The notes: generated by a model from the letters alone, not told the origin. 61,080 nt of DNA from a virus (IMGVR_UViG_3300032219_001741:1-61080); one strand, 5' to 3'. Counted from the stretch's first letter, positions 13,320 through 44,148 are shown. Numbers and translations are program-made.

Positions 13320-16300
13320 TCACTTCTTGGCGCGTCGTTGAGCGATCTCGCGCCAGATTTCACGGACAGCGCGGACCCGCATCGCCTTCCATTCGGACTC
13401 CAATCGTTCAACGCTCGCGCGTTCTGGATCGGAAATGTCGCGCTTGAATCGGGCGATCTTGGCCGCCGAATCTTCGCCCTTATCACCTTTGATCCCCCGG
13501 AGTGGATTGCGGTCGTCGATCAAGTCAACCAGTTGCTTCGGTGTCGTGATCGCGTTGGGAGTTTTGCCGTCCGCTGCGCCGACTTCCGCAAGATTGGTCA
13601 GCTCACGTTCGACGGCATTTACGTCGTTGTTCAGGATCGCTTGATAGACTCGTTGCCGAGCCCGGCCCAGCTTTGTAGTGTCGCCCCCAGGATCCGCGCC
13701 AAGGCTGTAGCCGTTGCGTTCTGCCCAGCGGTTCGCGATGCGCCAGACTTGCGGGCTCGCGTTGCGGAAGTCCAAGCCGGTCCAAGCCCGGACGACATCG
13801 CCCCCGGCAGTGCGGCGCTCCATGGTGGATCGTTGCACGTCACCGCCCCCGGTGGTGCCCTCGACGGTCTTTTGCACCACGCCGTAGGATGCGGCAAAGG
13901 CCGGAGCCCAGATGTCGCGCATCTTGTTTCCGATCGCCATAGCCTTTTCTCCGGCGTCCATCTCCGAATGCACCAGAGGCTTGTCGGTGAATGGGTCGCG
14001 GTTCAGCATGAGGTTCAACGCCGTGCTGGCAACCGGGGAGGAAAACCATGAGCGTCCAAGCTGGACGGCGAATCCGGGATCCTCGCGCCCTTCCTCGACC
14101 CGCATCCCGAGGGAGTTGGCGTAGGGGTTAATGTTCGTCATATCGAACATCATCGGGCGGCCTTGATCGTCGAGCCCTGGCATGAGGGCGGAGAACTGCA
14201 ACGTGATGGGACCAATCTTGCGGCGTCCGCGCATCTCCGCGTAGATCGCTTCCCGGGCCTTGCGCTTGCGTTCGTCGTCATCGCCCGGGAGTCCGTAACC
14301 GAGGGCGGCCAACGAGTAGACCGTCACAAGACCAGGGATCGCCATCCACTTCGCAAGGGTGGCAGGGCGATACTGCATGGCGTTCAGCAAGATCCGACCG
14401 CTTTCGTAGTAAAACGACAAGAACGGCATGATGGTCCGCTTCAGGTTGCGCACCGTGGCGGTCTTCGGGACGTTGTCGTAGTAGGGGAACCACAGGCGGA
14501 CGTGCGCGGCGGCTTCCTTTGGACTCATGCCCGACTGCTTCGCCTTCGCGTAGGCGGCGGTTTTGAAGAGGGCGTCCTCGATCTCGTAGGCTTTGTTGGC
14601 CCCGGCCCGGAGCGACATCATCATCGCCTTAAACTTGCCGGGCGGCTTCTCCGGCAGGGTCATTTGAGCGATGGCGGCGGCGAATTCCTTGCTTCCGATG
14701 TCCGAACCGAGAACACCCTCGCGGAAGAGTTCCGCAAACGTCACTCCGCCCGAAGCCTTGCGGCCCACGACAAGGTTCCAGGCGTGTCCGTAGAATTGAA
14801 GGTTTGCAGGAGAAACGGGTGAGCAATACCCGAAATCAGCGAACATGAAGTTGCCGATGAGGTTGCGCCCGTGAGTGGCCGGGTTCCAACTCGTGTGCGT
14901 TTCCTTCCAAAGTCCAAGCATCGCGTCATAGATCTTGAGGGCATCGTTCGGGGCTCCGGCGATTTCGTAGAGGTCGCGAGCAAGGTTTTCCTCAACCCAT
15001 CGGCCGGAGATTTTGCCGAGGGCTTTGTTGTCGGCCATCCGCACGAATCCGGGACGTTCGGAATCACTGACGAGATTCGGATCGGCTTCCAACGTCGCAA
15101 ACATTTTGGCCATCGCGAGATCGTGGCCCATGGTGGCGATGATCTTTCCGACGACGTAGCCGGGGTCGCGGATCAGCCCCATGGCCGTCAGCTCGCCCTC
15201 GGTCTTCGGAACGGTCAGGTTGAACTGATCCGCCGTCTTCGCCATCACGTTGCGGATCTGCGAGCGGAGTTGCGGCGACACGGAATCGGCGTTGCGGTTC
15301 TCGATCACCGACACCGGGAGACGCATTTCCTTGGCCGTCAACCGCTCAACGTATCCGTGAAACCATTCGTCCCGGTCCTCGGCGGAATCGAAGCGCCACG
15401 CGCCATCCGCGCCGTGAGCAATTGGGCGAGGGTTCGCACCCCGGGTGGTGACGGCCCACGCATCCGAAAGCCGGGCTTTCGTGTAGCTGAGATCCATTTT
15501 GCCCTTGAGCATCTTCCGATCCCGCGCTTTCTCGATCGCGTTGCCGATCACCCCGGAAAGCCCGTATCGGTTCTGCTCGTGTTCCAGGTAGAATCGGCGG
15601 AGGTAGGTGCCAAATCCCTTTGCGACCGTCTCCGCTTTGAGTAGACCGGCGGCCACCGCGCGTTCGCCGAGAATGTCGATCGTTTCCCGCGCGGCTTCCA
15701 CGACAGGGCGAAGGGCGGGCGGCAGGGTGTTGAGGTTGGCCTCGCCTCCCAACACCTTCCACATCGCGGCCTGCATCACCGGGTCTTTGGCGTATTGCTT
15801 TGGCACCGTGAGCCCAAGCAAGTCCGAGGTTCCACCATCGCGGAGGATGCGCAGGAACTCGCCGCCTTCTTGACCGGCCAAGGACTTTGCAATGTCGGCC
15901 TCGCGTTGCGCCATGACCGCCTCGTGAGCCACGCCCCAATGCGGAATGAGTTGGGACGGTGCGGCATCCATCACCATCTTGGCGACCGGCCCAAGGACCG
16001 GGATGGCCTCAACAATGGCACTGGCGGCGGATGCGGCCTTCTTGGTCACACGCATCTTGCCCGCCCGGTTGAGCCCCTTGGCGGCAGCCTGGACGCCCTT
16101 TCCGAGTAGGGTGTTAAGCTTCCTTTCGACTCCGATGCCACCCATGCCGAGGGCTTTGGCTGGCGCGGGGTTTGTGGCCGGGACGGCACTGCTGGCAAAG
16201 AGCATCCCCGGCACTTCCTCGCGCAACCCGCTCGGGAATAGCGCCTCGCCTCCGGTGCGCGGCCTGGATGGCTGGCGTTCGCCTGTTTGCTTGGCGTCCT

Positions 16301-17552
16301 TCTTGTCTTCGGTGACTGGTGGACGCGGCTTCAAGGTGATCCGCACCGTCTCGTTGATGGCATTGCGCTCGCCCGGGGCGATCAACCAGTCGATCCCGTC
16401 CATCTCCGGCTTGGCGAATGCGGTGGGGTTGAGTTGGGCCGCCCGGTCTACCAGGGCTTGCGCTTCGGGGAACTTCTGCAACGTGGACTCGTAGATCGAA
16501 ACCGTGCCTTTCCCGGCCACTGGATTCTTGGCAAGCCACTTGCCAAAGTCCTGCATTCGGCGCCCGCGAAGGCTCATCTTGACCATCATCGACTCCGCTT
16601 CGCTGAGCGATGCGGGGATCAATTCCGTGAGGTCGGCGACGGTTCGCGCGGCGTCGGCCTTGACGAAAAACGAGGCCGCCATGGCTCCGGCGGTGGTCTT
16701 GAGGAAGTTGCGGCGGGTGGTGCCTTCCGGCACGGCAGCGGAGGCAAAAAGCATCTGACTTTCACCCTTGATAGAATCCGCCATCTCCGGGGTGATGGTC
16801 ACGCGCCAGATAGGGGTAGATTTCGCCTTCCACTTGCGAGCGGCAGCGATGTCATTTTCCGAAGACTCGTACCACGCTTGACTCAGTTCGGAATCCGTCG
16901 CCTCTGGGTGCTGCTCCTTATACCATTCTTTGAATTCGTTCGCTCCAACGTGCACTTCTTTGCCTGCAAGGTTGCCCTTTTCAACCTTCGCGCCCCACTG
17001 CTTGACGTATTTCTGGACTTCGGATGGGAGGATCTTGTCGTAGAATCCCTTCATGCCTTCGCCGCCAACTTTAAGCCCGTCGCCCTCAAAAACGGCAGCG
17101 GTGTCGTTTTCCACGGTCAGGATTTTCTCCGCCATGTCTTTGCCGATGATTTCATCCAACCGCTTGTTAGCGAATTGCCCGTATTTTACGGTCCCTCCGT
17201 CAACCTCTAAGTCGATGACGCTACCGGATTTCTCGAAAATTCGCACGTCGTGGAACGTGTCATCCCTCGCCTCAACCTCGATGCTGTCCACGCTCTTGGC
17301 CAAGTCGTAGCGGTCGTTCTGCGTCTCGCCCGAGGTCCATCCGACCCATGATTGACCGGAGTTCACCGCGTCGCGCAAGGCTCGCTTGAACATCGCCAAA
17401 CCCCATGCAGACGAGTTGCGGAACGGCATATCCGGAGTTTTCGGTGGGCCGATGTATTTGACCGCAAGGTCCGTGTCATTGACCAAGGCTGCCCGAAACT
17501 CATCATACGAGAGTTTCTTTCCGTTCAAAAAGTAGGTGCAGTCAGGACGCAT
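13320..17552 (-). CDS. Large virion/ejection-type polyvalent protein, C-terminal part
   Basis: 1410 aa; PDMPF..W...FKRALRDA and GMKGFYDKILP segments; helical C-terminal region (WNPATHGRN, MPFLSFY, NRDPFTDKPL) typical of podovirus internal proteins. Confidence 0.8.
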   Translation of the reverse strand: MRPDCTYFLNGKKLSYDEFRAALVNDTDLAVKYIGPPKTPDMPFRNSSAWGLAMFKRALRDAVNSGQSWVGWTSGETQNDRYDLAKSVDSIEVEARDDTFHDVRIFEKSGSVIDLEVDGGTVKYGQFANKRLDEIIGKDMAEKILTVENDTAAVFEGDGLKVGGEGMKGFYDKILPSEVQKYVKQWGAKVEKGNLAGKEVHVGANEFKEWYKEQHPEATDSELSQAWYESSENDIAAARKWKAKSTPIWRVTITPEMADSIKGESQMLFASAAVPEGTTRRNFLKTTAGAMAASFFVKADAARTVADLTELIPASLSEAESMMVKMSLRGRRMQDFGKWLAKNPVAGKGTVSIYESTLQKFPEAQALVDRAAQLNPTAFAKPEMDGIDWLIAPGERNAINETVRITLKPRPPVTEDKKDAKQTGERQPSRPRTGGEALFPSGLREEVPGMLFASSAVPATNPAPAKALGMGGIGVERKLNTLLGKGVQAAAKGLNRAGKMRVTKKAASAASAIVEAIPVLGPVAKMVMDAAPSQLIPHWGVAHEAVMAQREADIAKSLAGQEGGEFLRILRDGGTSDLLGLTVPKQYAKDPVMQAAMWKVLGGEANLNTLPPALRPVVEAARETIDILGERAVAAGLLKAETVAKGFGTYLRRFYLEHEQNRYGLSGVIGNAIEKARDRKMLKGKMDLSYTKARLSDAWAVTTRGANPRPIAHGADGAWRFDSAEDRDEWFHGYVERLTAKEMRLPVSVIENRNADSVSPQLRSQIRNVMAKTADQFNLTVPKTEGELTAMGLIRDPGYVVGKIIATMGHDLAMAKMFATLEADPNLVSDSERPGFVRMADNKALGKISGRWVEENLARDLYEIAGAPNDALKIYDAMLGLWKETHTSWNPATHGRNLIGNFMFADFGYCSPVSPANLQFYGHAWNLVVGRKASGGVTFAELFREGVLGSDIGSKEFAAAIAQMTLPEKPPGKFKAMMMSLRAGANKAYEIEDALFKTAAYAKAKQSGMSPKEAAAHVRLWFPYYDNVPKTATVRNLKRTIMPFLSFYYESGRILLNAMQYRPATLAKWMAIPGLVTVYSLAALGYGLPGDDDERKRKAREAIYAEMRGRRKIGPITLQFSALMPGLDDQGRPMMFDMTNINPYANSLGMRVEEGREDPGFAVQLGRSWFSSPVASTALNLMLNRDPFTDKPLVHSEMDAGEKAMAIGNKMRDIWAPAFAASYGVVQKTVEGTTGGGDVQRSTMERRTAGGDVVRAWTGLDFRNASPQVWRIANRWAERNGYSLGADPGGDTTKLGRARQRVYQAILNNDVNAVERELTNLAEVGAADGKTPNAITTPKQLVDLIDDRNPLRGIKGDKGEDSAAKIARFKRDISDPERASVERLESEWKAMRVRAVREIWREIAQRRAKK

Positions 17553-18219
17553 GAAATTCCAACGTGGTGAGATTTTTCCGAAACCCGGTAAGCATATTGT
17601 AGAGGCTTTTCATGGGGATGCCGCGATCTTCCGCCGCAGCCGTAACAGTTGCGAATTCCTGCCCCGTCGCCGAATCGACAACCCTCCTTGCGGAAGGATG
17701 TCGCGCACCCGTCCGACCAAACATCGGGTTTCGTTCTCCGAATTTGGTTTGCCTGATGCGATCCTTCCACCACTCGGGGAGCGTATCGCCTTTCTGGATT
17801 GATGTTGCGATTCCCTTTTTCGCTGCGGAGATTTTGCGCCCGTGCTCAGCGGTAAGTTTCCGCCCCTTTGATTGAGCACTGCGCTTTGCCCGTTCCTCGG
17901 GGCTAAAATAGCCACGCGAACGCCCGTCACCGCCATCTGTCTGATTCACCAGAGAACCGCCGTCTTCCTTGCGTCCGTAAAGGGAAATGAAAAACCGCTC
18001 CTTTTTCGCCGCTTCATCATCCGTTCGGCAAAGACAGAGGATTTCCACAGTGTGTCCGTGCTTTGCGACAACGGCATGCCACCACTTGTTGACCCGGTCC
18101 ATTGTAAATGCCCTTTCGAAATCAGGGCGACGTTTCAACCGGTTCGCTCCCTTTCCGACGTAAAACACTTCGCCCGTGTCATTGCGGACGTGCCTGTAGA
18201 CGTAAAATCGTTCATTCAT
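17542..18219 (-). CDS. GIY-YIG homing endonuclease with NUMOD3 and NUMOD1-like DNA-binding motifs
   Basis: YVY...FYVGKG, LVNQTDGGDG, KGRKLTAEHGRKIS, GERNPMFGR, TGQEFATVTAAA; more AT-rich than flanks. Confidence 0.88.
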   Translation of the reverse strand: MNERFYVYRHVRNDTGEVFYVGKGANRLKRRPDFERAFTMDRVNKWWHAVVAKHGHTVEILCLCRTDDEAAKKERFFISLYGRKEDGGSLVNQTDGGDGRSRGYFSPEERAKRSAQSKGRKLTAEHGRKISAAKKGIATSIQKGDTLPEWWKDRIRQTKFGERNPMFGRTGARHPSARRVVDSATGQEFATVTAAAEDRGIPMKSLYNMLTGFRKNLTTLEFHAS

Positions 18220-21200
18220 GGGCAGACGACTTTGAGGATTCCGTCCTTTTTCATCCTAGTGACAACGGACACCCAAGCATCGTCTAATTGCGCCATCATT
18301 CCAGCGGCGTCTTTGCGAATTGCTTGCCCCCTGTCGCTCTGGATTTCTTCGATGAACAACCCGCCCTCGCGTTCGTTGGTCCGCATGTGGGCCACGTAGT
18401 TCGCGACGTCCGGGAAGTGGGAGGACGTGTATCCCTCGTATCCGGTGGACACATCAGATAGGTCACGATACTGCACCCGCAACGCGCGTTTCTGGTCCTC
18501 GGTGAGATTCGGATTCTCCAACTCCTTGCGGATGCTTTCCATTTTCGCATACCGCTCGGCATCGGGCTTCCCGCCCATCGCCAGGACCACCTCGCGGTAG
18601 TTGCTCCCGCCCGGGATCTGGTATTGCGCGAACTTGGTGGCGTTTTCGCCAGACTCTTGAAGCCCGCGATAATCGGAGATCGTTTCCTGAACCAAGTCGG
18701 CGATTCGCGCGTTCCGTCCAAGGTAAGTATTTTCGTAACGCGATGCGGCTTGGACAACGGAGTCGGATTCGGTTGCGTTGAATCCATCCTCGCGCAAAGC
18801 TCGCCGCAGCCTTTCGGCAGATTGCGGAGCCGTCATCCGATCACGTCCGCCCATCGCCACCTCTTCAAACCGCACACGCCCCGAGTCCCGCAGATGCGCC
18901 AAGAGCGCCTCGCGCGGCACCTTCCCGCCGTTTTCCTTCGCGATCCGGTCAATGGCAGGGATCACGCCGCTCCACTTGATCTCGTCGGCCTTGACTCCGC
19001 TGCCAGGGTTCTGAATCAGCGCCTTGACCTGCTCCGGTGACGCAAAGCGCCCGGTGATTTTCGACCCGATGACCTGTTCCAGTTGGCTGAAGAATCCGGC
19101 CTCACGTTCGGCGCGAAACGACGGCACCGCCCCGCTAGCCTTGAGGATGTCGGAGGATTCGCCCGCGCTCATCTGCGGGCCGGAAGCGCCAAACATCACG
19201 ATCGCGTCCTCGGGTGCGATGTTCTCGGAGCTGTAGGGCGCAACCGCTTTGCGTTGCTCCGGGGTCATGGATTGGCGGGCTTGCACGTCGCGGGCCTCGA
19301 TCTCGCCTGCGTTACGACGATAGGCGCCCATTCGTTGCGCCGGGGTTGCTTGATCGGCTCGCGCCCGCGCCTCTGCGCTTGCTTGACGCAACGCATTCAA
19401 CTCGTCAACACCGTCTTGGTATCGCGACTCTAAACCGGATCGAGCTTGCGGGTCGCTCGTCTCCGTGATCTGTCGGTTGAGCGCCAGCAACGAGATCTTG
19501 ATCGCGTCCATCTTGGCGCGGTTTTGCGCCGCCACCTGATCGGCGGCGTAATCCATGCCATCCAGAGATGTGCCTACGGCGAATCCTTCGCGGTCTTGAA
19601 TCCAATGCTGAAGCTCATGAAGTAGGTCCGACAACAGCCTGTAGGACACTGGATTATTCAGTTCGATCTCATTGAGGCTGGGCCGGAACACGCCTCCGCC
19701 AAGAGGCTGTGGGCGCCATTTTACTGTGATGTCCCGCGCCTCCGGGTAGGCGTCGAAGAACGCCGGGTGGTCAAGGAAGTCGCCTAGCGCCCTTGTCAAC
19801 TCACCTTGGCGAAGTTCGCTTTGCGTCATGGCTCGCGTCTCAGCTCCGTCATCTGGGATCTCAAACCGCATCTTGCCGTCATACGGCCCCGGGAACCAAC
19901 CCGTCACCGCGCGAATCTCCTCCGAGGACTTGCCCGCCGCCGCCATCGCCTTCGCGGATTGCAACGCGTCAGCCATAAACTGCGGCATTTGCGCCGAGGC
20001 TCCTGCGTAGCTGTATCGGATGTCGTCGCTCGCAGGGTTGAAGCGCTTGTCTAGGGGGACTCCCGTGAACGGATCAGCCAGTTTGATCTGTGACGGGTCA
20101 ATCACGATCAGGGATTTCGTGTTGCCCGTCGCCAAACTTTCGCCTGGCTCAATCTGCGTGATCGAATCGAATCCGGCGTTGCGGAGGGCGGCAACGAAAT
20201 CATCGTCATCAACAAGGCTTTGCGTTGCTTCGTAAGTGTCCGCCTTTTCTTCGCCGGTCAAGATCGAACGCACGGAATCCCATACCGTGATAGGGTCGAA
20301 ATCTAGGACGATGCCGTTGCGTTGAAGGAATCGCATGAACGCAGTCTGCGTCGATTTCACGCCAAGCCTGTCGAGTCGTAGCGGGTTCTTGGCCGCGATG
20401 AATGTCTCGTAAACCTGCCCGTCAGCTCCGTGAAACTGCTTGGCGAACGCTTCGGCGAATCGCTTTTCAGTGGCGAAGAATGTTGGGGTGCTGAATTCTT
20501 CGATCCCCTTCGCGCCGCCATGCCATCCCTTTTCGGTGAATCCAGCATCCCGGGCGGCTTTGCGGGTGATGCGCTGAGCTTCGCGGGTCTCGGCCTCGGT
20601 GATCGTTCCGGCGTTGAATTTTGCCTCAAGCTCCGCGTGGCGTGCGGCGTCCTTTGACATCCCGCCCGCCTTGCTGCTGTATCGGGCATCTCCGTTCATC
20701 GGGCCGCCCCTAAAGCCCCGAAGTCCTGAGGCGAAGATGTCCCACGCTTGCGCCTTGGCCTCGGCTGGGGTTAGCGCAACCCCGAAGAGTTTTTTCACAG
20801 CTCGGGTCACGAGGTTGACCAGTCGCTCCCATGCGGTGCGCGTGTCAGGCCCGGACTTTGCAATCATGTTTTCGAACGCAAGAACGGCGCGTTCTTCGGA
20901 TGCGTATTCGCCCATTGGCCCGTCGTAGAAGTCGCGGATGATCTCATCGACTCGGGCGCGTTCTGCCGGGGTCAGAAGCTCCGTGAATCGATCGAACGCC
21001 TTGCGGGCTCCGGGCTTGCGCCAGACGTAATGCCCGATCTCGTGGGCTACCGTGAGTGGAGCTTGGCGGGCTTGATTCGTTGCGGCATTAACGAGGATCT
21101 CGTTGCCCTGGATCATTCCAAGCCACGTCTCGTTTGGGAGATCGACGACGCGGACGCCAGAGGGGATGCTTCCGCCGAATCGGTTTTTAAGGGCTTCGCG

Positions 21201-24200
21201 GACAGCCTCGACGTTGCCTCGGAGGACAGGGGCCGGGGCGGCGCTGTATCGGATGTCGTTGGATTGCGGGTTGAATCGCTCGCTGAGGCGGGTTCCTGTG
21301 AATGGCTCCGCGCTTTTGATCTGGTTGGAATTGAATACCGCGTAATGGTCGGCAGGCACATTGAACAATCCAATCGCGTCGTCAAGGTTGCGGAAAATGA
21401 CGCCGTCATAACCTTGGCGCCTTGCGTCCTTCAATAGTCCGGTCAACCCCTCATCAATATCGCCGTCCTCAGTCAATTCTTGCGGACTTTTGCCCTCGGC
21501 GTCAAACTCCATGAATCGGCCGGAAAGATACCCGGCGAACACGTCGGCATTCTTGCGGAGTTCAAGGCGTGACGCCGCTGTGTCCAACGCCTCGGCTTTG
21601 CGGACTGCTTCATCGTAACCGTCCCAGTCGCCGCGTCGCTCGGCTTTTTCAGCCTCCCGCATCGCCTCTTTGATTGGGCCATCTTCCGCCGAATACACCG
21701 CGTAAGCCCGCGCTGTGCGCTCGTCGGTTGTAAAGAAGAACGCAATCTTGGCGCTGCGAGCCTCTGTGTTTTTGCCTCCGAAACGCTTGTCGAACTTGTT
21801 GAACGATGCGCTCCGCCCGTGAAATACCCTTGGCGAGTCAAAGCCAGCATTCCGCGCGGCACTTGCAACCAATGCCTCGGCTTCAGTGGTTTCCGCCTCA
21901 GTGATCGTCCCGTTGTTGAACTTCGACTCAAGCACCGCGTGCCGTGCGTAATTCACCGGCACCGCCCCGCTAGCCTTCAGAATCACCGGCTCCTCATCAT
22001 TGGCGTCCTTGTAAACCCGATCACCATCCGGCCCTCGAACAACGCCGATGAAATCCCCCGTAGCCTTGAGGTCCGTGGCGTCAATCGTGCCCCCAAACAT
22101 CCCCGCGAGGTCGATCGTCCCTTGCCGAATCCCGTCCGCACCTCCCGAGGTCACCACGATCTGCGAGGCTTGCGTCATCTCCGGCATCGCCAGCGCCCAG
22201 GCGCGGGAGCGAACTGGAATCTGAACGGGCGCCATCGCCTCGCCATCAACGTCTCGGACCATCACCGTCGCCCCGGTGCGTCCTTCAGGGACTCGGCCCA
22301 CAAACATCGGGACCACTTCCTGATCTCCGGGCTCGCCGATCATCGCCAGTGCATCGCCGTAGATGCCCTGCCAGGTCGGGATTGCGTCACGGTGGACGAC
22401 GCCGATCATCGCGCCCATGTCGGGGATGTCCGCCAAAGCAACGGTGCGGGGCGGCTCCTTGGAGGGAGATTCCATCTTGCGGCGGACCTCGGCGATCTTG
22501 GCTGCAATCTTGCCTCCAACGGCTTTGCGAGTGCGTTCCTTTGGTGGAGTCGGGACCGGCGTGTTCGTGATGAGTCCTAGGGTGTCGCGAACTGTGGCGT
22601 CGATCCGGCGTTGGCGTTCGCGCTGGTATCGGTTCGGTTCTTCGGGGGTGGCTCCCGATGCGCGGAGGATGGAATCAGATTCAGGGTTGAATCGCTCGCT
22701 GAGAGGGATGACGCGGCCCGTTTCGTCGTAGGTAACAGCGTGATTTTCTTTTTGCAATGCCACCCATCCTGATGATTGGTCGTGCTTGATTCCAAGTCGA
22801 TCCTCAATCGTCTTGATGACGGTCGCGAAATCTGCGCGGATTGTGGATGAATCCCAGTCGCCCGATTGCGGAAGAATGCGGGCTGCGACATCGCCGTCAG
22901 CATTGGTGAAAATGTCAATGTCTGAGTTGCCTGCGCGACCCTCATCCATGTCACTTCGCTGGAAGCCGCCCCCCTGCTTCTGTTGATGCCCGGATGCGCG
23001 AACGGTGATGGTTTTATCGTCGTCGTTGGGAGCGTATCCTGTGAAATACACCGACCCTTGGCTTGATCCTCGATATGAAAAATCAACGGGAAACCCTGCC
23101 AGCAACGCCTGAACGGCGTCGGCTACAGGGTATTTGTTTTTGCGTTGAACCAACGCTTCTGCCTTATTGTCAACGGCTTCCTGCGCCTCTTCGACAGCGC
23201 GCTCCAACTCAAGAATTGTATCCTCTTCCCATCCGCCCCCCTCGTAGTGACGGCGGATGACCCTTTCCTTTTCATCGGACGAGAGGTCAATCCATTCGGG
23301 ATCGTCTCCGCGCACGTCAGCATCCCACATCTCAGCAAACGACTCACCATCCATCGTCTCTGCATCATCTGGGTTCGCTAGAGCTTTAGCGAATGCGCCT
23401 TCAAACCGCGCCATGTCAGCCTTTGCTGCATCTAGGTCTTTCTGTGAAACCTCCTTTTTGGCGTCGTTGAGAGAGTAAAGTTTCACCCCTGCCGCTTTCG
23501 CTGCCGACTCGAAAACCTTACGCGCCTTTGTGGTATTGCCGCCACCAACCGCCGCGAGATACTCCGCGTCCATCTTCGGTGTCACAGGCACAGCACCCGA
23601 AGCCTTCAGGATCTCATTCGTGGTCGCTGGCGATACGCCCTCAATCGCCTTGCGTGTGGCGGCGTCCGTCACATTGATCCCCTCCGCACGCACCAGCAAC
23701 GCAATGCGCTTGGCGTGGTCTCCGATCAACTGGCGGGCGTCTTCGGCGTTATTCACCCCGTTGATGCCCTGCATCGTGTTCGTGCCAGTGAAAAGCCGGA
23801 TGCCGCCTAGGGTCTTGCCGCTGGCGGGTCCGAGCAGGAGCCAGTAGTCGTGAGTGGCGAGGTAGTGGCGGGCTTGCCCTTCGCCGTTGGTGCACCAGCT
23901 ATCGGGGCTGAGGGCCATCAGGGACTTGATGTGGTCCGGCGGCACATCCGTGATTTCCTCAATCGTGAGCGTTCCGAGTTCAGCTTCAATCGCCGAAGAT
24001 CGTGCGTCATTCTTCGCTTCCTGCTTAGACGGGAACGTGTCGTCAATCCTGAATCGGTCATACATGTTTGGCCGATGCACCCATTGGCCTTTGTATTCCG
24101 CGACGTAATCCTCAGCATCTACGCGAGTCTCGAAAACCTTAACGACCTCGGTCATGTCTGGATCGGCGGACGATTCCACCGCAAACCCGATGTAGTCTTC

Positions 24201-27200
24201 ATCGTATTCGGACAACGGGTAATCGTTAATGATTTCCAAAAGGCTTGACGCCTCCACGATTTCGATGTCGCTAAAATCAAGGTATCCCTCAATTGCGTCC
24301 TTGGCAGCATTCTCGGCATCAACACGGGTCGCCGCTTTGATGGTGCTCCCATCCTCAAACGTAACCATGACAGCGGATTGAGGCGATCCTCCTCCGGCTG
24401 CACCGCCCGGCACGAACACCCACCGATGCCCCTCGCCCGCCTTGATCGTGCGCAAGCCCTTCGTGGCCGCCTTGGCGCGTTCCTCGTCGTAGAGGAAGAG
24501 CGGGTCGCCCGCTTCGCCGGAGCGGATCAACTCAAGGGTGGATTCCAAGACCCTAAGCGTGATCTCCCTCGGGCGGCCCAGCCCGTAATTGTCACGGGAA
24601 CCAATGGAGTTTTCCAAGATGTCCCATGCAAGGTTTGCCGCATACGGGTCCGAAGCGTAGGAGTCGGGACCGGCGACCAAGAGATTCTTCCATGTCTCCG
24701 CCGCCTCTCTCCGGGGGCGGTTGACGTTCTGCTCCACCCACGCGGACCAGCCTGCGTCGGTCGATCGTTTCGGCATCGCGTTTTCAGCCTCGTCGAGATA
24801 CGATTGCCGCTCGTAGGCATTCATCTCGCGCCACTCACGCCCGTTATCAGCGGCCGCCTTTCTAGCCGCAGCTTCCACGTAATTGGAGCTTTCTCCCGCT
24901 GAAAGCGTGGCCAGGGTGTCAAAGCCCTCCTCAATCCCATACTTCGCTTGCTTCTCCGCCGCCTTGCGAATCACCGGCTCCAGCCTGCGGATGGACTCCG
25001 ACTCAACCTGGAAACGGTTCGCGGAACGCCGCGCGAACTCCGCCTCGGCGAAAGCGTCAAGGTCCGCCTTTGTCTTGATCTCCTGCGTGTTGATCTTCCC
25101 GCGACGCCGCCCAAGGTAGGCGAAGGCGAACGGGTCGCTCTCTTGCGTGACTCCGAAGCGGCGCACCATGGATGATGGCACGGCGGCGGACGCCATCAAT
25201 AGTTCGTTCTCGGACGGCGTTACCGGGTCGGCTTGCGGCGCGGTGAAGGATTGCTCGGATGGGGTTGCGTCCTCATCTTCTACGAGATCGGAATGGCCTG
25301 CATCCACAAGCAGTTTGGACACATCGACCTCTGAGGCTCCCTTTAAGAATTGCGCCCATTGATCGAAATTCCCTCGCGCCATTCGCGCCCTGACGGCGGA
25401 CTCATTGCGGGGATCTCCCTCGGCTTCCCATTCCCTGACAATTTCATCAAAGACATCGACGCCCTTGCCGTAGCCGTAATAGCTTGAATCGCCAATGATG
25501 CCGAGCGCCGTCAGTAATTGATCGATATCGCTCAGCGGATCATCCGAATCGCGGATGTAGTCAACGAGGCTTGACGGAACCGCGCCGGATGCGTTGAGAG
25601 TCTCGTTCTGCCCGTCGTCCTTTGGCTTCGTCGCGGGCTTTGATCCCGTGGCCGCCTCGGTCTTCAGGTTGCGCAAAGCTTGCGCCGTGGCCGCCGCCAT
25701 AGCCTCCAACTCCGCCTTGAGTTCCGGGTTCGCGTCGCCGAGTTGCTTGATCGCCAGCTTGAGCCACTTACGCAGCTCGCGGAGGATCCTGCGCACCATT
25801 GAGGTCGCCTCCGCGTTGCCGATCACCGCCTCTGAAATCTGCCCCGCGAACTCCGCATCCTCGACCATCATGCGGATCATTTCCGCCCCGAGCACAAAGT
25901 CGGAAGCCTCCGCCGCCTCGGCCTTCATCGACCGGGACGAGAAATAGGCGTTGCGGACTAGGCGTTGCAGCTTCTTGCCCTCGCGGCTGTCGCCAAGGGC
26001 GGACCATACTCCGGCCACGTCCGCGTCGGAAAACGCACCTTCCCGCACCGCGTCCTTCATGGCGTGGTGGATCAGTTCGTGGCGAACCAAGGTTTCGGCT
26101 TGCTCTGGACTGTATCGCTCCAACGCCCGGCGGTTGACGACCAACTTCCCGCGAGCGTAGCCCATCGGCGATTCGCCTAGCTCGCTTTCTTTGGCGTCGC
26201 GGACACCGCCCGGGAACACGTCCACCAGCGCCGCCGCCTTCGGGGCGATGCGCTTCACGTAGTCGGTTGGGGTTTCGTCCTGCCCTGCCGATGTCCCGTT
26301 TGCTTCGGGCTTTTGTCCCCTTCGTGCCCCCTTCGTGCCCCCTTTGGCTTTGGCGTTGAGTTGCGCGACGACTGCCCCGGCTTCTGAGTATGTGCCTACG
26401 ATCAAGTCAGGCCGGACCTTGGCGATCTCCGCCTTGATCGTTGCGGCCTGATCGGCGTGAGCCTCATTGATCAGGATCGCCCCGAGACCCTCTAGATATT
26501 GGCCCTCCAGGTATTGCCCTGGTCGCGCCAAAAGCTGGAACGGTCCGTCACTGTATGCCGAACCGTTCGGCGTCGCTCCTGCGCTGCTTCCGCCCTTCTC
26601 GCTGACTAGAGGAGCAGTCTCAAGCATGAGTTCCCCGTTGCTGTATGGCTTGATCCTCGACGGGTCTAGCCCGTTGGTGATCATGTTGAGCAGATCAGCC
26701 AATCCTCCAGACAACGTCCCAGCCTTTGCCATCCCGTGGGCTTGGATGTCATGACCTCCATTGGCCCGAGCCTCGTCAAATCCACGCCTCGCGGATTCGT
26801 TTACGTTCGCGCCATCAAACCATTCGTCGTGACGTTCGGTTCGGTGTTGCTGATCCCATGCCGCCACTTCAGCAGGGACCCGATACGATCCCTTGTCGAA
26901 GGATGCCTTACCTCGTTCGCTTTGGGTTGTTCTTTGCGATGGATTGGCGAGTGCTTTGATTCGGGCTAAGGTGAGCCCTGGGAGTTTTGCGCGAACTTCT
27001 GCGGGGGTCGAACCGCTTTGCAACATAGCCACCGCTTCAATCTCCGCCGGACTTTGCGCGCCCCCTTTGTTTGAAGATGCAGGAACTTGTGCGGAAGTGC
27101 CTGCGGTTTCAGTGATCGGCGTATTCGTCGGAATCGTGACCCCGGCATCTTGGAAGAGGACGACACGCGCCGCCCGGCCTAGTCGTTGCTCCGATGGGAG

Positions 27201-30200
27201 GCTGACCGTCTGCCCGTCCGGCATCGTCGCCGTGTAGGTGAAGCCCTGCGCCGCCCCCTCACCCGAGGGAGCGGCGACTTCGGGTTGTTGTGTGCCCTGC
27301 GGTGCCATGCCTCCGCCGGATTGTTTGGCCGCCTTCGCGTCTTCGCGGGCTTGAGCTTGTTGGGTGGCTTCCACCTCACCCATCGGATTGATCGACTTCA
27401 GCGCCGCGCCCATCCCTGGCATCAGGGTTTCCGCGCGTTCGATTGCGAGGTCGGAAACGATCGGCGTTTTGCCGGGGCCTTCGGTGATTGCGGGGGCGGA
27501 TGTGCCTTCAAATTGCGCCTCGATCGCCGCTTGCTCTGCCGTGGAGGGCGTGTTCCCGGCCAAAACCTTTGCGATCCCCCGAACGAACAACGCGGATTGT
27601 TGGCTTGCGACGACTTCAGCGATGGCGTTTTCATCCCCGGAATCCCTGGCCGACAACAGCGCCCGATCGAATTCCTTCGGGTCCGTGGCTACAGCGATGT
27701 CGGCCATGGCTTTCGCCCGTTCTTGCGCCCGCGCGGTTCCTTGTTGAATCGCTTCCGTGACCGGGGCCAACACGTCGCTGTGGCGGTTCTGCTGTTGCGC
27801 CCCGGTGGTGAGTAGGTTGGCGGTGGCGAAATCCTTGGCCGCAGCCTGTGAAGGATCTCCAAAGTCTTTTACCAGCGCCTCGTATTGGGCCGGTTCAATC
27901 CCGGCGTGGGCTGCGAGGGCTTCAGGAGTCGTGACCGTGGCGGCGTTCTGCCATGCAACCTGAATCTTGCCTTGCGGCGTCGCGGTGTTGACGGGTTCGG
28001 AACTCAACGCCCCGCCAATGGCGCCGACACCGCCGCCCATAATCCCGCCCATTGCCGTGGCGTTGATGATGTCGCGCCGTCCCTCGGCGTCGATCGGGTT
28101 TTGACCGGCTCCGACACGTTCCAAGACGGTCTGCAACGCCTCGGTTCCGCCTTCCATGGCAACGCCTTGCGCCGCGCCGGTAGCTGCGCGAACCGCCCGG
28201 CCTGTTACGCCCTTCGGCATCTTCTTGCCTCCAAGGAGATCCAAGCCAAATTTGTCCGCCACGGATTCCAGCCCGCCCGCCGCGATGCCGGTTCCCCAGA
28301 CTCGCGCGAGTTCCCATCCGGTAAGTTCTCGACCTTCCTCTTTGGCCTTCTTGGCGGCCTCGCCGTAGATCGCGCCCAACTCCATCCCGAGGGCGTTGGT
28401 GAGGATTGCGGTATTCGACCCGATCGCTTTCGCGGCGGCTTGTTTTAGCGTTGCAGTTTGAGCGAGAGCTTTGACCTCCGCCTTCGCTGCCGTTTTGCCG
28501 AGCTGCTTCAGGGCCATCTTTTCGGCCTGACTGGCGATGGCTTCAGCCATGAACTTGCGGATGCCGGTCTTCACCGCACCTTTGGCGAACGCGCCGCCGA
28601 GGGCTCCACCAACCGCACCGACAGCCGTCCCTCCCCCAGGCTCCACCGCCGTCCCGGCCGCGCCACCGATCGCCCCACCCGCCGCAGATACGGCGATCGT
28701 TTCGAGAATCTGGCCGATGCCGTAGCCGACGGCGTATTCCAGGAAGTTCGCCATCGCGCCAAGATTGCCCTTGCTCGCCTTCGACCATGCCACCGTGACG
28801 TCGTCGTCTTCCCGGCTGATAGGAGCCATGCCTTGCTCGGCATCGAGGTATCCACGAAAACCCCAGTTGCGGAGCGTCTCCCCTTTGCCGACCGTCTTTT
28901 CCAGGGTGTCGCCGATCAAGGCCGCGACTCCAAAGCCAAGCTGCGGGAGCTGGCGGGTGGAGACTTCCGCGCCTCGGACCACGTCGCCCACGATCGGTGC
29001 CCGCTTGAGTTGCGCAAACCATCCCTTTCCTTCGACCGGTTCAGGCTTTGGCTTGAACGTTGCCGTGTCTACGTTGGCGAGATACAGGGCCGCCGCATCA
29101 TCGTAGCCAAGGGCCGGAGCGATTTTCGACAACTTGCCGGATGCCATCAGTTTCGCCGCCGCTTCCTCCGGGGTCTTCGCGTCCTTTTCAGCCGCCGCAA
29201 ACGCCTCTGCAACCAAAGGGCTAAGCCTCTCTTGCGTGGCGTCGTCCAGTTGCGTGTCGATGGCCGACATTGCCGCCGCAACCGCGTCGTTGGCCTCCTC
29301 TGGCAACATTTGATCGTTGGCCAGCTTTGCAATCACGTCGCGTTGCGTGGCTTGAAACTCTGCGAGCTGCGAGGCGCGGCGTTCTTGGATGCGCGAGGCG
29401 ATCACGCCCTCATCGCTCTGGTCCTCCTCTACGGGGACGGCGGGCGATGCGTTCAGCGGTTCCAATCCAGGGGTCTGAACTTCAGCCGGGGCGGCTCCCG
29501 GCGCGGGCTCCCCCGGCGTCGGGGCTTCCTGCGGGGCGTTCGAGAACGGTGTCGCCGCCGGTTGTTTTGCGGGAACGTCCTTTGGCAGTTTGCGCTCCAG
29601 CAACGCTTGCTGAATCGCGTCCTCGTCACGGATTGCGCCGTAGGTCCGGGCGAAACGGTTGGTTGCAAGATCGATCGCGTTGCGGCTCTCCACCTTGATC
29701 GCGTCCCGCTTCACCTTGGCCTCACGATATTGGTCGGAGGTCATCGGGCCGGAAACGGCGGTCTCGAACTCCTCCTCGGCGGCCAGGATCCGGGCTTGAT
29801 GTTCGGCGGTCGTCTGATCCACCTGCGCCTTGGCGGCTTCGGCCTTGGCGGAAAGCTCCGCACGTTTCGCGGCGAGTTCCTGAATCTCGCGATCTTGGCG
29901 CACTCGGTTTGCCTCGGCCACCACGGCGGAATCGGCTTTGTCGGCCCCACCCTTGAACGAAAACGCCTTGTCGTCGGCGGCCTGAGCGGCTTGCGCGGCC
30001 ACGTCCCGGGCTTGCTTGGTCGCCTGGACATACGCCTTGTCGGTGTCAGCGAGGCTTTCGATTGACTGCGGGTCTTCAGGATCAACTCCCAAATCCTTGC
30101 CGACTTGCTTCAGAATCGCGTCTGGCTCCTTGGCCATCCGCTTCGCGGCCTCGGCGTTGTAATCCAGTTCCCGAGACTTCGCGGCGCGTTGATTTGCAAT

Positions 30201-30620: not shown

Positions 30621-32171
30621 TTAGCGGGAAGCGAGAGCTTTGGAGGCAGCGGCGCGGACCGGGGAAGGAGTTGCGGCAACCCGCTTGGTTGCTCCAGCGC
30701 GTCCGCCCGTGCGGGCAACTGGCGTGAACTCTGTGGGAGTCCGTGGCTTGCCCATTACCTTTTGCACCATGCTGTCAACAGTCGGCGGCGCGGGCGCATC
30801 CTTCCCGACTCGCGAGCTGGGTGGTCGCGCTGCGATTTGCGGAGCCGGGGCGGATTGCGCCGCCTTGTATTCCGGGGAATCAATGAAAGATGTCGGCTTG
30901 TATTCCACATCGGAAGGCCGACCAAGCAGAGCTGTTTTTGGACTCTGCATTAACGGATGTTCGATGTAAATGCGGTTGGCTTCACGCTTTGCAAACGCCT
31001 TCGCGGCATCACGAACCGCTTGCGTCGGTTCAGGCAGGGGCGGAGCCTTAACGTCAGTTCGCGGGGCTGGGACTGTGGCGCGAGCGTTGGCGAACATCGA
31101 CGCAACCTCGCCTTGCGCTTTGGCAGTGGCGGCAGCGCGATCAAACGTCGGAAGCTTCGGGCCTTGCGTCGGCCTGTCACCCATTACATTCGTTGTCGCT
31201 TTGGCGGGCGGACCCGATACTGCAATCTTGCGATCAGCACGAGTCATGCCGTCGTTTCGCCGCACGTTCATAGCTCCGGCAGGAGTGGCGGTTTCGGTTT
31301 GCGGCTTCGACCCTGATCCGTTGTAGGTCGATTGCGGACCAATCACGCCCATCGCCATCGCGGTCTGAGCCCGTGCGCGGAAGGTCGAGGCGGCGTTTTT
31401 GCCCTCCCATGACGGTGGAGCTGCGGGCCGATCAGCGGGCAACAACGGCGAGGCATTCAGCGGACCAGCTCCCTGCACGCCGGAAACGCTCCCAAGTCCT
31501 CGCGCACCTTGAATCCCACCCGTGCTTTGCTGACGCGCTCCATTGAGTCCGGATGGCCCGTCTTGCGCAACCGCGCCTTGCACCGGGCCAGTGCTCTGTG
31601 GCCTTGCGCCGTCAGGAAGTGGGGACGGAGCCGCCGGATTAGGGGCCGTAGTCGGGGTTTGACCTCCCGGAGTCGCGGGCCGCATCGGACTCCCCGGAGC
31701 GTTCGCGGAATTCGGTGCAGAACCTTCCGATTGACCAAGTCCCGTCACCGCAATCCGGTTCCGCGCATCCGCAGCCTTGGCCCGGATGTCCATTTGCGAT
31801 TGAGAGAGCGGCGTGTTCTGGCGTTGCTCCCACGCAGCGCGGCCCTCATCGCCCATCTCCCGATACTCTTTGTCGAGGATCGCCATGGCCTCGAACTTGG
31901 TCTTGCCCTTGAACCGGCCCTCGTTGTATTTGGCACCGCCGCCGCGTTTCCCGCTCAACGTCCGGGAAGCTCCGCCGATGGCCGATGCGACATAGGCGTC
32001 GTAGCCGTTCAGCTCAGGGGCTGTCGCGGCGGCGTAGTCGTCTTTCGTAACTCCCTCGGCGGCTTGGTTCGCCTTGGCCTTTTCCAACGAAGCGTTTCCG
32101 CCAAGATCGACAGGAGGCCGTTTCGAAGCCGTTCCCTTGTATTGCGCAACCAACTCCGAAAGCGTAGCCAT
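30621..32171 (-). CDS. Low-complexity Ala/Pro-rich protein, probable internal virion/ejection protein
   Basis: 516 aa, first gene of the giant-protein operon; internal repeat GARPQSTGPVQGA / GARQQSTGGIQGA. Confidence 0.65.
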   Translation of the reverse strand: MATLSELVAQYKGTASKRPPVDLGGNASLEKAKANQAAEGVTKDDYAAATAPELNGYDAYVASAIGGASRTLSGKRGGGAKYNEGRFKGKTKFEAMAILDKEYREMGDEGRAAWEQRQNTPLSQSQMDIRAKAADARNRIAVTGLGQSEGSAPNSANAPGSPMRPATPGGQTPTTAPNPAAPSPLPDGARPQSTGPVQGAVAQDGPSGLNGARQQSTGGIQGARGLGSVSGVQGAGPLNASPLLPADRPAAPPSWEGKNAASTFRARAQTAMAMGVIGPQSTYNGSGSKPQTETATPAGAMNVRRNDGMTRADRKIAVSGPPAKATTNVMGDRPTQGPKLPTFDRAAATAKAQGEVASMFANARATVPAPRTDVKAPPLPEPTQAVRDAAKAFAKREANRIYIEHPLMQSPKTALLGRPSDVEYKPTSFIDSPEYKAAQSAPAPQIAARPPSSRVGKDAPAPPTVDSMVQKVMGKPRTPTEFTPVARTGGRAGATKRVAATPSPVRAAASKALASR

Positions 32172-34238: not shown

Positions 34239-34976
34239 TTAGGAGATTCTCGCGAGCGCCTCTTGCATGACTCGTTCGGTTCTTCGGTCGTATCTGGCCG
34301 TGGTTGATGGGTTCTTGTGGCCCACGATTCGATCAACGACCTCCATCACTTGGTCCGTCGTGATGGAGAAAAACTCGACCCCTTCGTTGAGGCTCCCGCT
34401 GTAACTCCTTATGACTCCAGTCACGGGCGTGCGAAATCGACCAAAGTAACCATGAATCATCTGCTCAGCTTTAACGCAGCATGTCACAGGAATCGAACTA
34501 GCCACCTTTGCCTTGATGCCAAAATGCTTTTCCGCCCACCGCGCCCTTGCTTGCGCTGAGGTTGAAGCGCGGCCAATCTTGATCAGGCCGTTACTGCACT
34601 CCAAGAAGTAGATGACGCCACCCTTAATTGGCTCGCAGCGATGCTGACCATTCATGACCGCGATGGACAATTCCGATCTTTTGGCCACAGGAACCGGGAC
34701 TGACGCTCGAAACCATTCAACCATCCGCTCCGGCCCAAAGAACGCATCGTGCTCAGCGTCATGCAATCGCTTCAGGTAGGTGATGAATTCACGGTGCATC
34801 AACGGAAACCCAAGGCACCATCCGCCGTCAGGGCAAAGCGCCACGGGTCTCTTTGGCTTAAATGAAGCAAGGGCGACTCGTAGGGTTTTGCAATCGATCG
34901 GGTCCATTGGAGGCTGTTCGGTATCAGACACGACGAAAGTATCACGGTTTCTAAATGCGCCAAATTCTTTCTGCAT
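34239..34976 (-). CDS. T5orf172/Mug113-like GIY-YIG domain protein with recombinase-like C-terminal tail
   Basis: VIYFLECSNGLIKIGRAS...AEQMIH..F...EFF; ends with GHKNPSTTARYDRR. Confidence 0.75.
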   Translation of the reverse strand: MQKEFGAFRNRDTFVVSDTEQPPMDPIDCKTLRVALASFKPKRPVALCPDGGWCLGFPLMHREFITYLKRLHDAEHDAFFGPERMVEWFRASVPVPVAKRSELSIAVMNGQHRCEPIKGGVIYFLECSNGLIKIGRASTSAQARARWAEKHFGIKAKVASSIPVTCCVKAEQMIHGYFGRFRTPVTGVIRSYSGSLNEGVEFFSITTDQVMEVVDRIVGHKNPSTTARYDRRTERVMQEALARIS

Positions 34977-36301: not shown

Positions 36302-36555
36302 GCCGCAACCTCCCCGGTGAACTTCACCACGAAATCCATGCCGCCGTCTCCGAGCCTCCCAGCGTATCCGGCCGTCAGCGCCATGCGGGCCACGGCTTGA
36401 CGTGCGGGTTGTATCGGCCATGATGGGTAGCATTGCACGATGTCGTCAGGTCCGAAGGATTCGCCGGAGTGGCGGTTGGCAAGGACCGGGATTCCGTAGC
36501 TTGATGCCGCGTGCTCGTCAGTAAGGGACCAACTAGGAGTGAGTTGGATCGTCAT
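36298..36555 (-). CDS. Hypothetical phage protein
   Basis: LTDEHAASSYGIPVL motif; ATGA-coupled. Confidence 0.7.
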   Translation of the reverse strand: MTIQLTPSWSLTDEHAASSYGIPVLANRHSGESFGPDDIVQCYPSWPIQPARQAVARMALTAGYAGRLGDGGMDFVVKFTGEVAA

Positions 36556-37253
36556 TTGGTTTTCTCCTTCGCGGGAAGCCTTTCATTAGGTTCTGGATGC
36601 GGGACGCGACCGTTTGCGCCATAGAAGAAGGCCGTTTCGCCTCCGATAATTTCGTCGGAATCGCCCCACCATTCGTCCCATTGGCCGTTGCTCGCGGCGT
36701 CCCAGTCCGGGATTGCCTTCGCGGCCCCGGGCGGCGTGAGGGAAAGCGGCAGCCATTTGAGCCGGTTGTTTGGATAGATCGCGATCTGACCGTTCTCCAG
36801 CCGGATCACGTTTGCCTCCTTGTGCTCCTCCAATAAATCGGCCTCGCCAACGTCAAGGTGTCCCAAACCCTGACCTTCGGGAAGAAAGTCCAACGTGAAC
36901 CAGTAGTGGCCCGCCGCCATCTTTCCGCCCCCGAGATTGACGATGACCGGCACGTCGGCGAGTTGCGCCTTTTGCCAGCACTCGATTGACCCGCTGAGGC
37001 ATTCCCACATTTGCACTTTGTGCATCGGCAGGGCTTCGGCATCGGATTCCTCCGGCTCGCGCCAGTAGAGGCAATGCGGCGGGATCTTGTCGTAGCACGC
37101 GGCGAATTGATCGACCCAAACCTGAAAGGCGAAGGGGCGGTTTCGCAAGGCGCGGGCTGATACCAACCATGCGGACTCGAACTTCGAGGCGTCGCGTCCA
37201 AAGGCGTCGCAGCGGACCCACACGCGGGCTTTTGGTAGGTTGACGTTCCTCAT
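36552..37253 (-). CDS. Conserved-looking hypothetical phage protein
   Basis: QMWEC, YWFTLD, EHKE, LENGQIAIYPNNRL motifs. Confidence 0.75.
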   Translation of the reverse strand: MRNVNLPKARVWVRCDAFGRDASKFESAWLVSARALRNRPFAFQVWVDQFAACYDKIPPHCLYWREPEESDAEALPMHKVQMWECLSGSIECWQKAQLADVPVIVNLGGGKMAAGHYWFTLDFLPEGQGLGHLDVGEADLLEEHKEANVIRLENGQIAIYPNNRLKWLPLSLTPPGAAKAIPDWDAASNGQWDEWWGDSDEIIGGETAFFYGANGRVPHPEPNERLPAKEKTK

Positions 37254-38341: not shown

Positions 38342-38607
38342 GATGCGAAAAGGGTGAAAAACTCCTCAATTGATTTGACTCGCGGCGTCTGATCCAGACA
38401 AATACCGCGCGAAAGGTCTCGGTTCTTGCGCTTCAGCTCCGCAACTTCAATAAGGGCCTCAAACCGCGCCACGTCTGCGGCAGCGGCGGCCCGCTCAAGC
38501 TGGCGGCACAACGTGACGGGGCGGAGGTGCAACGGAACTTCCGGGTGCTCCCAGGCGTCGGTGATTGGTGTGTCAGTCCCTGGGGTGTCGTGGATTTTCA
38601 GGATCAT
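38338..38607 (-). CDS. Hypothetical protein
   Basis: DTPITDA...LCRQLER motif of small phage proteins. Confidence 0.6.
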   Translation of the reverse strand: MILKIHDTPGTDTPITDAWEHPEVPLHLRPVTLCRQLERAAAAADVARFEALIEVAELKRKNRDLSRGICLDQTPRVKSIEEFFTLFAS

Positions 38608-38996: not shown

Positions 38997-39030
38997 TGCT
39001 AAGATTGCTGCTAAGCTAGCGGTAAGGGGT

Positions 39031-39058
39031 GCCCGCCCCCTGGTTGAAAGGGGCGGGC
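39031..39058. terminator. Intergenic hairpin
   Basis: gcccgcccc-N10-ggggcgggc. Confidence 0.5.
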
Positions 39059-39063
39059 TAGGC

Positions 39064-43948: not shown

Positions 43949-44148
43949 CGGCCCACTACTGCCCCTCATGCCTCGTTGCGTGGCAGGAACACCAATGTCT
44001 CGCCACAACATGCGCCGAACTGAAAGCCTCGCGCCAAGAGGCCGTGGAGCTTCGAGAAAAGGTCGTAGAACTCCGCGCGTTGGTCGATCAACTCACCTCC
44101 GCGATCGAGGCAAATCCTGAAGTGATGGCGTGGGAGGGTGAATTTTGA
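43945..44148 (+). CDS. Small Zn-binding/coiled-coil protein
   Basis: CPSC...H.C...C. Confidence 0.6.
   Translation: MTAHYCPSCLVAWQEHQCLATTCAELKASRQEAVELREKVVELRALVDQLTSAIEANPEVMAWEGEF

Follow-up and report, generated by a model that had tools for sequence, protein, structure and literature searches.

A recurrent junction peptide at the cassette boundaries of a giant phage polyvalent protein, a candidate site of proteolytic processing

Short conserved peptides that mark where a conserved chain takes on one or another variable cassette are known from the polymorphic toxins, whose pre-toxin junction motifs include VENN in CdiA and DPxGL in Rhs. In viral polyproteins, including those with assemblin-type sites, one conserved short peptide likewise stands at each module boundary. 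Phage-type polyvalent proteins are giant multi-domain proteins encoded beside structural genes, in which ART-PolyVal, LPD23, LPD38 and HExxH modules are combined and cassettes are exchanged in a mosaic fashion; they have been proposed to be processed by built-in MPTase domains (Iyer, Burroughs, Anand, de Souza, Aravind 2017; PMC5512222). Such proteins are widespread and cutting into separate effectors has been proposed for them since 2017, and no defined site was found in the literature that we searched: neither the abstract, section 8 and main-text term searches of PMC5512222 nor searches on polyvalent-protein cleavage, PLxRFG, ejection-protein processing and linker or boundary motifs gave a described junction motif. 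Here we describe a giant gene of this kind, encoded on the minus strand by two open reading frames (ORFs), P1 and P2, in a 61,080-bp virus record that is complete and bounded by direct terminal repeats (IMGVR_UViG_3300032219_001741:1-61080; this whole stretch is hereafter called the window). The protein shares with the described polyvalent proteins its place beside structural genes, its ART-PolyVal, LPD23 and HExxH modules (and LPD38 in a relative) and its mosaic cassettes; beyond what those parts of PMC5512222 describe, the window defines an exact junction peptide, the breakpoints of exchange and a Tat-like export signal after one junction. Whereas pre-toxin motifs serve one C-terminal toxin per bacterial secretion-system protein, at least nine junctions stand here in series in a phage protein. 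The locus offers residue-exact candidate sites together with a natural experiment, the exchange of cassettes at the peptide between two closely related phages.

The junction peptide L-x-A-S-x-A-V/T-P occurs nine times, in each case in frame on the minus strand, with seven copies in P1 and two in P2 (Table 1). This confirms a preliminary description of the same DNA, in which these nine copies, the three copies of a second motif, D[IA]RYS, and three HExxH motifs (26067-26081, 21030-21044 and 19605-19619) had been listed; all were recovered at their places. When all six frames were searched for L.AS.A.P, 10 matches came up, namely the nine copies and one out-of-frame match at 20555-20578. From composition, 0.02 copies are expected in 5541 residues, and in 5000 shuffles the copies averaged 0.021 and never exceeded 2, which rules out a chance origin of the nine. 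In a weight matrix derived from them, the nine sites reach 27.8-37.3 bits, compared with 13.3 bits for the next best six-frame hit. Conservation at the junctions spans 8-9 residues. In the nine-junction alignment a Pro is also invariant approximately 11-14 residues before the motif, which could simply reflect how Pro-rich linkers align. A possible degenerate tenth copy, PLNASPLLP, lies at 31437..31463 (-) in a Pro/Ala/Gly-rich ORF of 516 amino acids (aa) just upstream of P1 (30621-32171); it has six residues in common with PLNASPAVP and is conserved in the relative G001, although it may be due to chance because its matrix score is below 12 bits.

The role of the peptide as a cassette boundary emerges from a comparison with this relative. 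A DNA pattern for I-L-K-A-S-G-A-V-P retrieved from IMG/VR three contigs with several copies each. One of them, G001 (43 kb), carries an unsplit frame of 5334 codons, likewise with nine motif copies, and is 92% identical to P1 over residues 1-1680. The two giant proteins were compared by BLASTP and by motif-anchored alignment, in which identity was counted in the 40 residues before and the 40 after each motif. Cassettes C1, C2, C4, C6, C7 and C9 are 74-95% identical between the window phage and G001, while C3, C5 and C10 are replaced in G001 by unrelated sequence and C8 is present in the window only, inserted between two motif copies; that is, 6 cassettes are conserved and 4 replaced or inserted. 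At 7/9 junctions, one flank of the motif agrees with G001 in 33-39 of its 40 residues and the opposite flank in 1-4 of 40. The eighth break, at P1 1804, falls about 20 residues upstream of the motif, and at the remaining junction (P1 385) no exchange separates the two phages. Inside C7, homology to G001 picks up again at the first DIRYS. The peptide can be regarded as the point of cassette exchange because near-identity switches to unrelated sequence at the motif, and, as read from the two genomes, cassettes have been swapped, gained or lost there between related phages. Its placement at domain boundaries, previously proposed from visible domains, and its division of the protein into cassettes are thus borne out by an independent test, and the boundary role is demonstrated at the level of sequence comparison. 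A conserved site stands at each module boundary, as in a processed polyprotein.

The last cassette, of about 950 aa, follows the same rule: the window version (13323-16178, minus strand; compared with L073:13207-15993) is unrelated to that of G001, which matches Pfam LPD38 (E = 1.1e-42), and has no family of its own. LPD38 and DUF7178 are the Pfam families that the G001 giant protein has in addition. The presumably structural C-terminal module is thus exchangeable as well.

Table 1. Positions in the window of the giant gene, its junctions, its domains and the signal after a junction (identities to G001 are per 40 residues).
Feature	Position	Strand	Remarks
P1, 4131 aa	18216..30611	-	N-terminal 75% of polyvalent protein gene; cassettes C1-C7 and first half of C8
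GIY-YIG-type homing endonuclease gene, 225 aa	17542..18219	-	phrog_314, E = 3.9e-19
P2, 1410 aa	13320..17552	-	second half of C8, then C9 and C10
PLNASPAVP (P1 385-393)	29433..29459	-	both flanks conserved in G001: 31/40 upstream, 35/40 downstream
TLNASGAVP (P1 1671-1679)	25575..25601	-	39/40 upstream, 4/40 downstream
LLMASAAVP (P1 1804-1812)	25176..25202	-	20/40 upstream, 34/40 downstream
ILKASGAVP (P1 2334-2342)	23586..23612	-	36/40 upstream, 3/40 downstream
ILRASGATP (P1 2648-2656)	22644..22670	-	PLSERFNPESDS directly before; 4/40 upstream, 34/40 downstream
ILKASGAVP (P1 2877-2885)	21957..21983	-	33/40 upstream, 4/40 downstream
ILKASGAVP (P1 3822-3830)	19122..19148	-	left border of extra cassette C8; 39/40 upstream, 3/40 downstream
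MLFASAAVP (P2 267-275)	16728..16754	-	right border of C8; against G001 junction 4221, 3/40 upstream, 37/40 downstream
MLFASSAVP (P2 450-458)	16179..16205	-	before C-terminal module; 39/40 upstream, 1/40 downstream
DIRYS junction (P1 3119-3123)	21243..21257	-	end of ART#1; G001 homology resumes (P1 3115 / Q 3481)
DARYS junction (P1 3308-3312)	20676..20690	-	
DIRYS junction (P1 3530-3534)	20010..20024	-	end of ART#2 and start of LPD23 module
C2 HExxH (HELIH) module, candidate zincin-like peptidase (P1 ~1444-1651)	25659..26282	-	HExxH and downstream Glu
ART-PolyVal domain 1 (ART#1)	21303..21830	-	Pfam E = 1.9e-21; predicted structure, pLDDT 85.3
ART-PolyVal domain 2 (ART#2), approximate limits	20025..20675	-	second Pfam stretch; conserved in G001
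LPD23 and HELQH part of most widespread module (M4)	19605..20015	-	Pfam LPD23, E = 1.1e-13
Tat-like signal EGTTRRNFLKTTAGAMAASFFVKADA	16653..16727	-	starts three residues after MLFASAAVP; P2 residue 276

Conservation at the junctions sits on the peptide, as the codons are diverse and the differences between orthologs are mostly synonymous. Across the nine copies the Ser is encoded three times each by TCG, TCC and AGC, and the 8 orthologous motif pairs shared with G001 comprise 72 codons, of which 46 are the same in both phages, 21 show synonymous differences and 5 alter the residue. The earlier claim that divergent codons argue for selection on the peptide is therefore upheld, and the junction peptide is, judging from these codons, under purifying selection at the protein level. 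The same figures bear on the idea that the motif is a recombination joint only, i.e., a short conserved DNA stretch for homologous or microhomology exchange whose peptide has no role. The breakpoints do lie inside the 27-nt stretch or right at its end, and two window copies share an identical 17-mer; however, the copies are only 44-93% identical as DNA (mean pairwise identity 60%), the Ser swaps between AGC and TCN codons, and the synonymous excess among the orthologs remains unaccounted for. We consider a mere recombination joint improbable.

The division of the giant gene between P1 and P2 is explained by a homing endonuclease gene. The minus strand carries three overlapping ORFs, P1, a 225-aa ORF and P2, the middle one overlapping its neighbours at both ends (ATGA with P1, 11 nt with P2). 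Besides its PHROGs match, this ORF has below-threshold matches to Pfam NUMOD3 and GIY-YIG and to TIGR01453 (E = 3.9e-4, below the cut-off). When IMG/VR was queried with the C-terminal 310 residues of P1, 48 loci were obtained; homologues of P1 3837-4100 and P2 41-269 lie in one frame, with a variable linker between them, in 42 of the 46 large relative ORFs with a match. Because the flanks are contiguous in these relatives, P1 and P2 are, by homology, one polyvalent protein gene of ~5,540 residues, split by the endonuclease gene, which is inserted in the variable linker of cassette C8. The match to phrog_314 and the joined flanks of the relatives are what a free-standing homing endonuclease gene would give; an Rfam search of the whole window, which would cover a group I intron or a different RNA near the gene, returned 0 matches at the gathering score. 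Since the insertion splits the giant gene, the phage evidently tolerates the chain in two pieces.

This gene accounts for 28% of the 61-kb genome and is located in its structural-gene region. At 3.3-11 kb of the window, PHROGs and Pfam identified a terminase, an SU10-type portal and a major head protein, all three at most 10 kb away from it, and the ORF that separates the portal from the head protein looks like a scaffold. The polypeptide joins several unrelated effector and LPD domains, namely two ART-PolyVal domains, LPD23 and three HExxH modules, in about ten cassettes; the total rises to 14 modules when the chain is also divided at the three D[IA]RYS junctions and C8 is taken as two halves. 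P1 and P2 thus encode, on this domain evidence, a phage polyvalent protein whose packaging in the virion is putative. The preliminary description had spoken of giant virion proteins: the polyvalent character holds, whereas the two proteins turn out to be a single split gene.

Within P1, Pfam recognizes ART-PolyVal at residues 2928-3103, in two stretches, and LPD23 at 3533-3591, and ART#1 has weak Foldseek matches to PARP/ART folds. A sequence search of P1 and P2 against the PDB gave 0 matches at E <= 0.1; cassette C8 has no Pfam family, and its Atlas look-alikes are unnamed. In C2 (P1 ~555-900; window ~27900-28950, minus strand), a long Gly/Ala-rich hydrophobic stretch (...AVSAAGGAIGGAAGTAVEPGGGTAVGAVGGALGGAF...) looks membrane-active, as expected of an ejected channel-forming part.

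Structure prediction with AlphaFold2 (AF2), scored by the predicted local distance difference test (pLDDT), covered the HELIH module and ART#1. Most of the 17-residue linker before TLNASGAVP is modelled at pLDDT <50, and in the model of ART#1 (23 alignment rows, mean as in Table 1) order stops at about DIRY, the residues after the Ser again falling below 50. On the other hand, ILKASGAVP at the N-terminal edge of the same model forms a small hairpin at pLDDT ~61-75. The models therefore place the motifs at domain edges, not buried, but not all of them clearly disordered.

The junction peptide has counterparts in the tails of related proteins. At E <= 0.001, 7747 library proteins match cassette C7, and many library matches begin at the DIRYS junction that opens the LPD23 module (query residues 650-659). 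Among 150 library representatives, 74 ART matches were compared. ARTs of the giant-protein subfamily have tails of the form ...IPLSQRFNP.S.DIR[FY]S or ...SIL[RY]AS, while stand-alone ARTs of another subfamily end right after the domain. In view of these subfamily tails, D[IA]RYS and ILKAS can be taken as two versions of one module-terminal tail; the junction peptide is, as far as alignments tell, a lineage-specific form of a widespread tail, ...PLxxRF(N/D)..S.DIR(F/Y)S or SIL(R/K/Y)AS, and the G-A-V-P extension appears specific to the window lineage. A third relative, P0008 (4562 aa), carries five copies of xL[QYR]ASGA[ET]P, and ILRSSGAHP stands just before its C-terminal module, which is 58% identical to P2 468-1400. 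A homologue search for short ART proteins ending at the junction gave only 8 proteins, too few for a count. The ART-PolyVal proteins P0155-P0157 and P0014 have a ...RF(N/D)..DDRITFS tail and list Pfam PF06074, a Mu-type portal family, among their precomputed families.

In a second, more distant clade among the IMG/VR loci, the borders of the C8 homologue carry ...T-R-F-M-P-E-G and ...Q-M-R-F-M-P-E, with a boundary consensus R-[FY]-[MLV]-P-[EQ]. From 1 to 6 copies of [RK]-[FY]-x-P-x are present in 23 of the 30 ORFs of at least 1500 aa from this clade. The 40 residues that follow the end of C8 and its motif fall into 14 clusters among the 30 ORFs, and the upstream sequences into 6 clusters from 25 ORFs; this variety of following cassettes adds to the evidence for exchange at the junction. 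Tandem degenerate copies precede the junction upstream of the C8 homologue in seven loci (L012, L014, L019, L021, L029, L035 and L039), e.g., ...VRMPEAQRAMPEGEQTPTRFMPEG.

The cassette that follows the right border of C8 begins with a candidate export signal. Signals of the twin-arginine translocation (Tat) type consist of S/T-R-R-x-F-L-K, a moderately hydrophobic stretch and AxA. The window sequence has this layout, with TTRRNFLK, TTAGAMAASFFV and KADA; [ST]RR.FLK is expected 0.0003 times in the giant protein and found once. The same signal is conserved in G001, where it begins at residue 4230 of the ORF, three residues after ILKASGAVP, and Atlas look-alikes include TAT_signal clusters at 0.91, with low recognition. 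As encoded, the signal does not stand at an N-terminus and would do so only after cutting or internal initiation. A Tat-type signal should need a nearby N-terminus, so that we count it as a hint of cutting; as it works only with an exposed N-terminus, it would also provide a built-in read-out of processing. Several results weaken this hint. Pfam TAT_signal scores 17.9 bits in the window and 20.2 bits in G001, below the cut-off of 22.7, and there is no NCBIfam match. Among 226 other giant proteins, an internal Tat-like signal occurs in one, G001's own cluster, so that the support comes from one lineage, and none of 115 candidates is a homologue of the 174-aa Tat-like cassette at a length of 95-305 aa.

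Furthermore, translation that starts within the gene, at the ATG of MLFAS, could likewise expose the window signal. More generally, the modules might be made separately, each from its own translation start close to a junction: ATG opens two of the copies, of which the copy ahead of the Tat-like cassette has AAGG at -15, and GTG follows two other copies. Yet 7/9 copies have no start codon in the motif, the nearest in-frame starts in G001 lie 20-29 codons upstream of the Tat-like signal, and the conserved L, A, S, A and P are left unexplained. Separate synthesis from such starts is accordingly judged very improbable.

We propose instead that the junction peptide is a candidate proteolytic processing site, and put the probability that it is such a site at roughly 0.5. 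Each cassette ends in a polar linker followed by x-L-x-A-S-x-A-V/T-P. The peptide would be cut once the particle has assembled or its contents have been delivered, most plausibly with the invariant Ala on one side of the cut and the invariant Ser on the other; the modules would be released as separate proteins, and one of them would then carry an N-terminal Tat-type export signal. L-x-A-S, present in 9/9 copies, fits the hydrophobic-x-small|Ser site of assemblin-fold head proteases (hydrophobic-x-A|S/T), and L-x-A|S resembles the assemblin sites of herpes simplex virus and human cytomegalovirus. For pseudorabies assemblin, PMC4498786 gives sites YLQA-T and VQA-S. A second hint of cutting comes from the P0021 cluster, whose four members (P0021 and P0161-P0163; contigs of 3.9-13.8 kb) are all 789 aa long and end exactly in ...PLEKRFDSSNPDIRY, i.e., with ...DIRY at the residue before the junction Ser. 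Further hints are the low pLDDT before TLNASGAVP and the end of order at DIRY, the shared HELIH module of the window, G001, P0008 and P0154, and the published proposal that MPTase domains process polyvalent proteins.

These data also have a reading without cleavage. The peptide might be an uncut adaptor or docking peptide, either a module-end linear motif binding a common partner (capsid interior, portal, chaperone or adjacent module), or a structural joint of standard form; any cassette could then be plugged into a chain that is packaged and ejected whole. Four observations count against cutting and suit an adaptor. First, the DIRY kept by P0021 also fits a tail that belongs to the module. 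Second, in the stand-alone relatives L041, L046 and L055 the motif-equivalent lies 12-25 residues from the natural C-terminus; this weighs against a role in release, as nothing needs releasing there, and fits a module-owned tail. Third, ILKASGAVP is modelled as the small hairpin at a domain edge mentioned above. Fourth, the N4 virion RNA polymerase, which has an MPTase domain, is reported in section 8 of PMC5512222 to be packaged unprocessed. An adaptor would also agree with the length of the conserved segment, with the upstream Pro and with the copies found on either side of the endonuclease split. An adaptor leaves unexplained why a Tat-type signal lies buried beyond residue 4,400 of the chain, and, as the motif at one and the same boundary is wholly different between the two clades, it would require a partner that changes along with it. 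An uncut adaptor is in our opinion possible rather than probable.

If the peptide is cut, the responsible protease has to be sought. The earlier description had considered a zincin of the same chain or a head-maturation protease. The latter found no backing: profile searches, the only kind made, detected no phage head-maturation protease by PHROGs (34 ORFs) or Pfam (32 ORFs and the giant ORFs). The window differs from assemblin systems in this respect, and also in that the conserved part runs five residues past the Ser. Among the zincin-like modules, HELIH is a candidate. Its residues H92, E93, H96 and E158 are invariant in 4/4 aligned sequences, the Glu lying in E-x-x-R-M-M-V. The AF2 model (4-row alignment, mean pLDDT 81.6) shows a helix, three strands and the HExxH helix, and this predicted topology fits the MPTase pattern of an N-terminal helix and a three-stranded sheet. 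The module is carried by the window, G001, P0154 and P0008, the last of which has no other HExxH module; this distribution among motif-bearing relatives is suggestive only. At least two SIL-type junctions are found in 3/6 proteins with HELIH vs. 2/146 without it, a set too small and too closely related to count as evidence.

As to the fold of HELIH, Foldseek gave no match to its model in the PDB at E <= 0.001, the wide VIA search returned only helical-hairpin rows (Z <= 8.1) covering the C-terminal helices, and the BFVD matches, with polyvalent, zincin, lethal-factor or metallopeptidase names, are weak (best E = 2.5e-3). No MPTase family was matched by Pfam in the giant ORFs. Against HELIH, P0151 has SILRAS three times and no HELIH-type module. 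Further carriers were limited to G001 and G003 in IMG/VR and to G001's cluster and P0154 in the protein search, with 0/599 pattern matches in the metagenome scan. By a subjective split, HELIH receives a minor share of the probability of being the junction protease; the rest is divided among the remaining HExxH modules, a phage protease that escaped detection and a protease of the host.

Should the peptide indeed be a cleavage signal, it would explain how anti-defence and takeover enzymes can be shuffled without breaking the chain, and would provide a rule for dividing thousands of uncharacterised giant phage proteins into functional units. In its widest form, which we offer as a tentative extension and would not expect to hold at even odds, junction peptides might be a general, lineage-specific cut code of polyvalent proteins, read by a peptidase in the same chain, so that cassettes are plug-and-play and released with defined ends, one module being exported to the periplasm by the Tat system of the host.

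Elsewhere, the genome seems rich in homing-endonuclease-like elements: such genes lie at 34239-34976 (-), 38604-39131 (-) and 48292-49368 (+), encoding T5orf172/MUG113, AP2-domain and HNH proteins. Finally, a PHROGs 'ferredoxin' (phrog_3704, E = 4.7e-34) at 36552-37253 (-) and a PAPS reductase (phrog_424, E = 2.5e-49) at 44145-44915 (+) may serve a DNA- or nucleotide-modification pathway.

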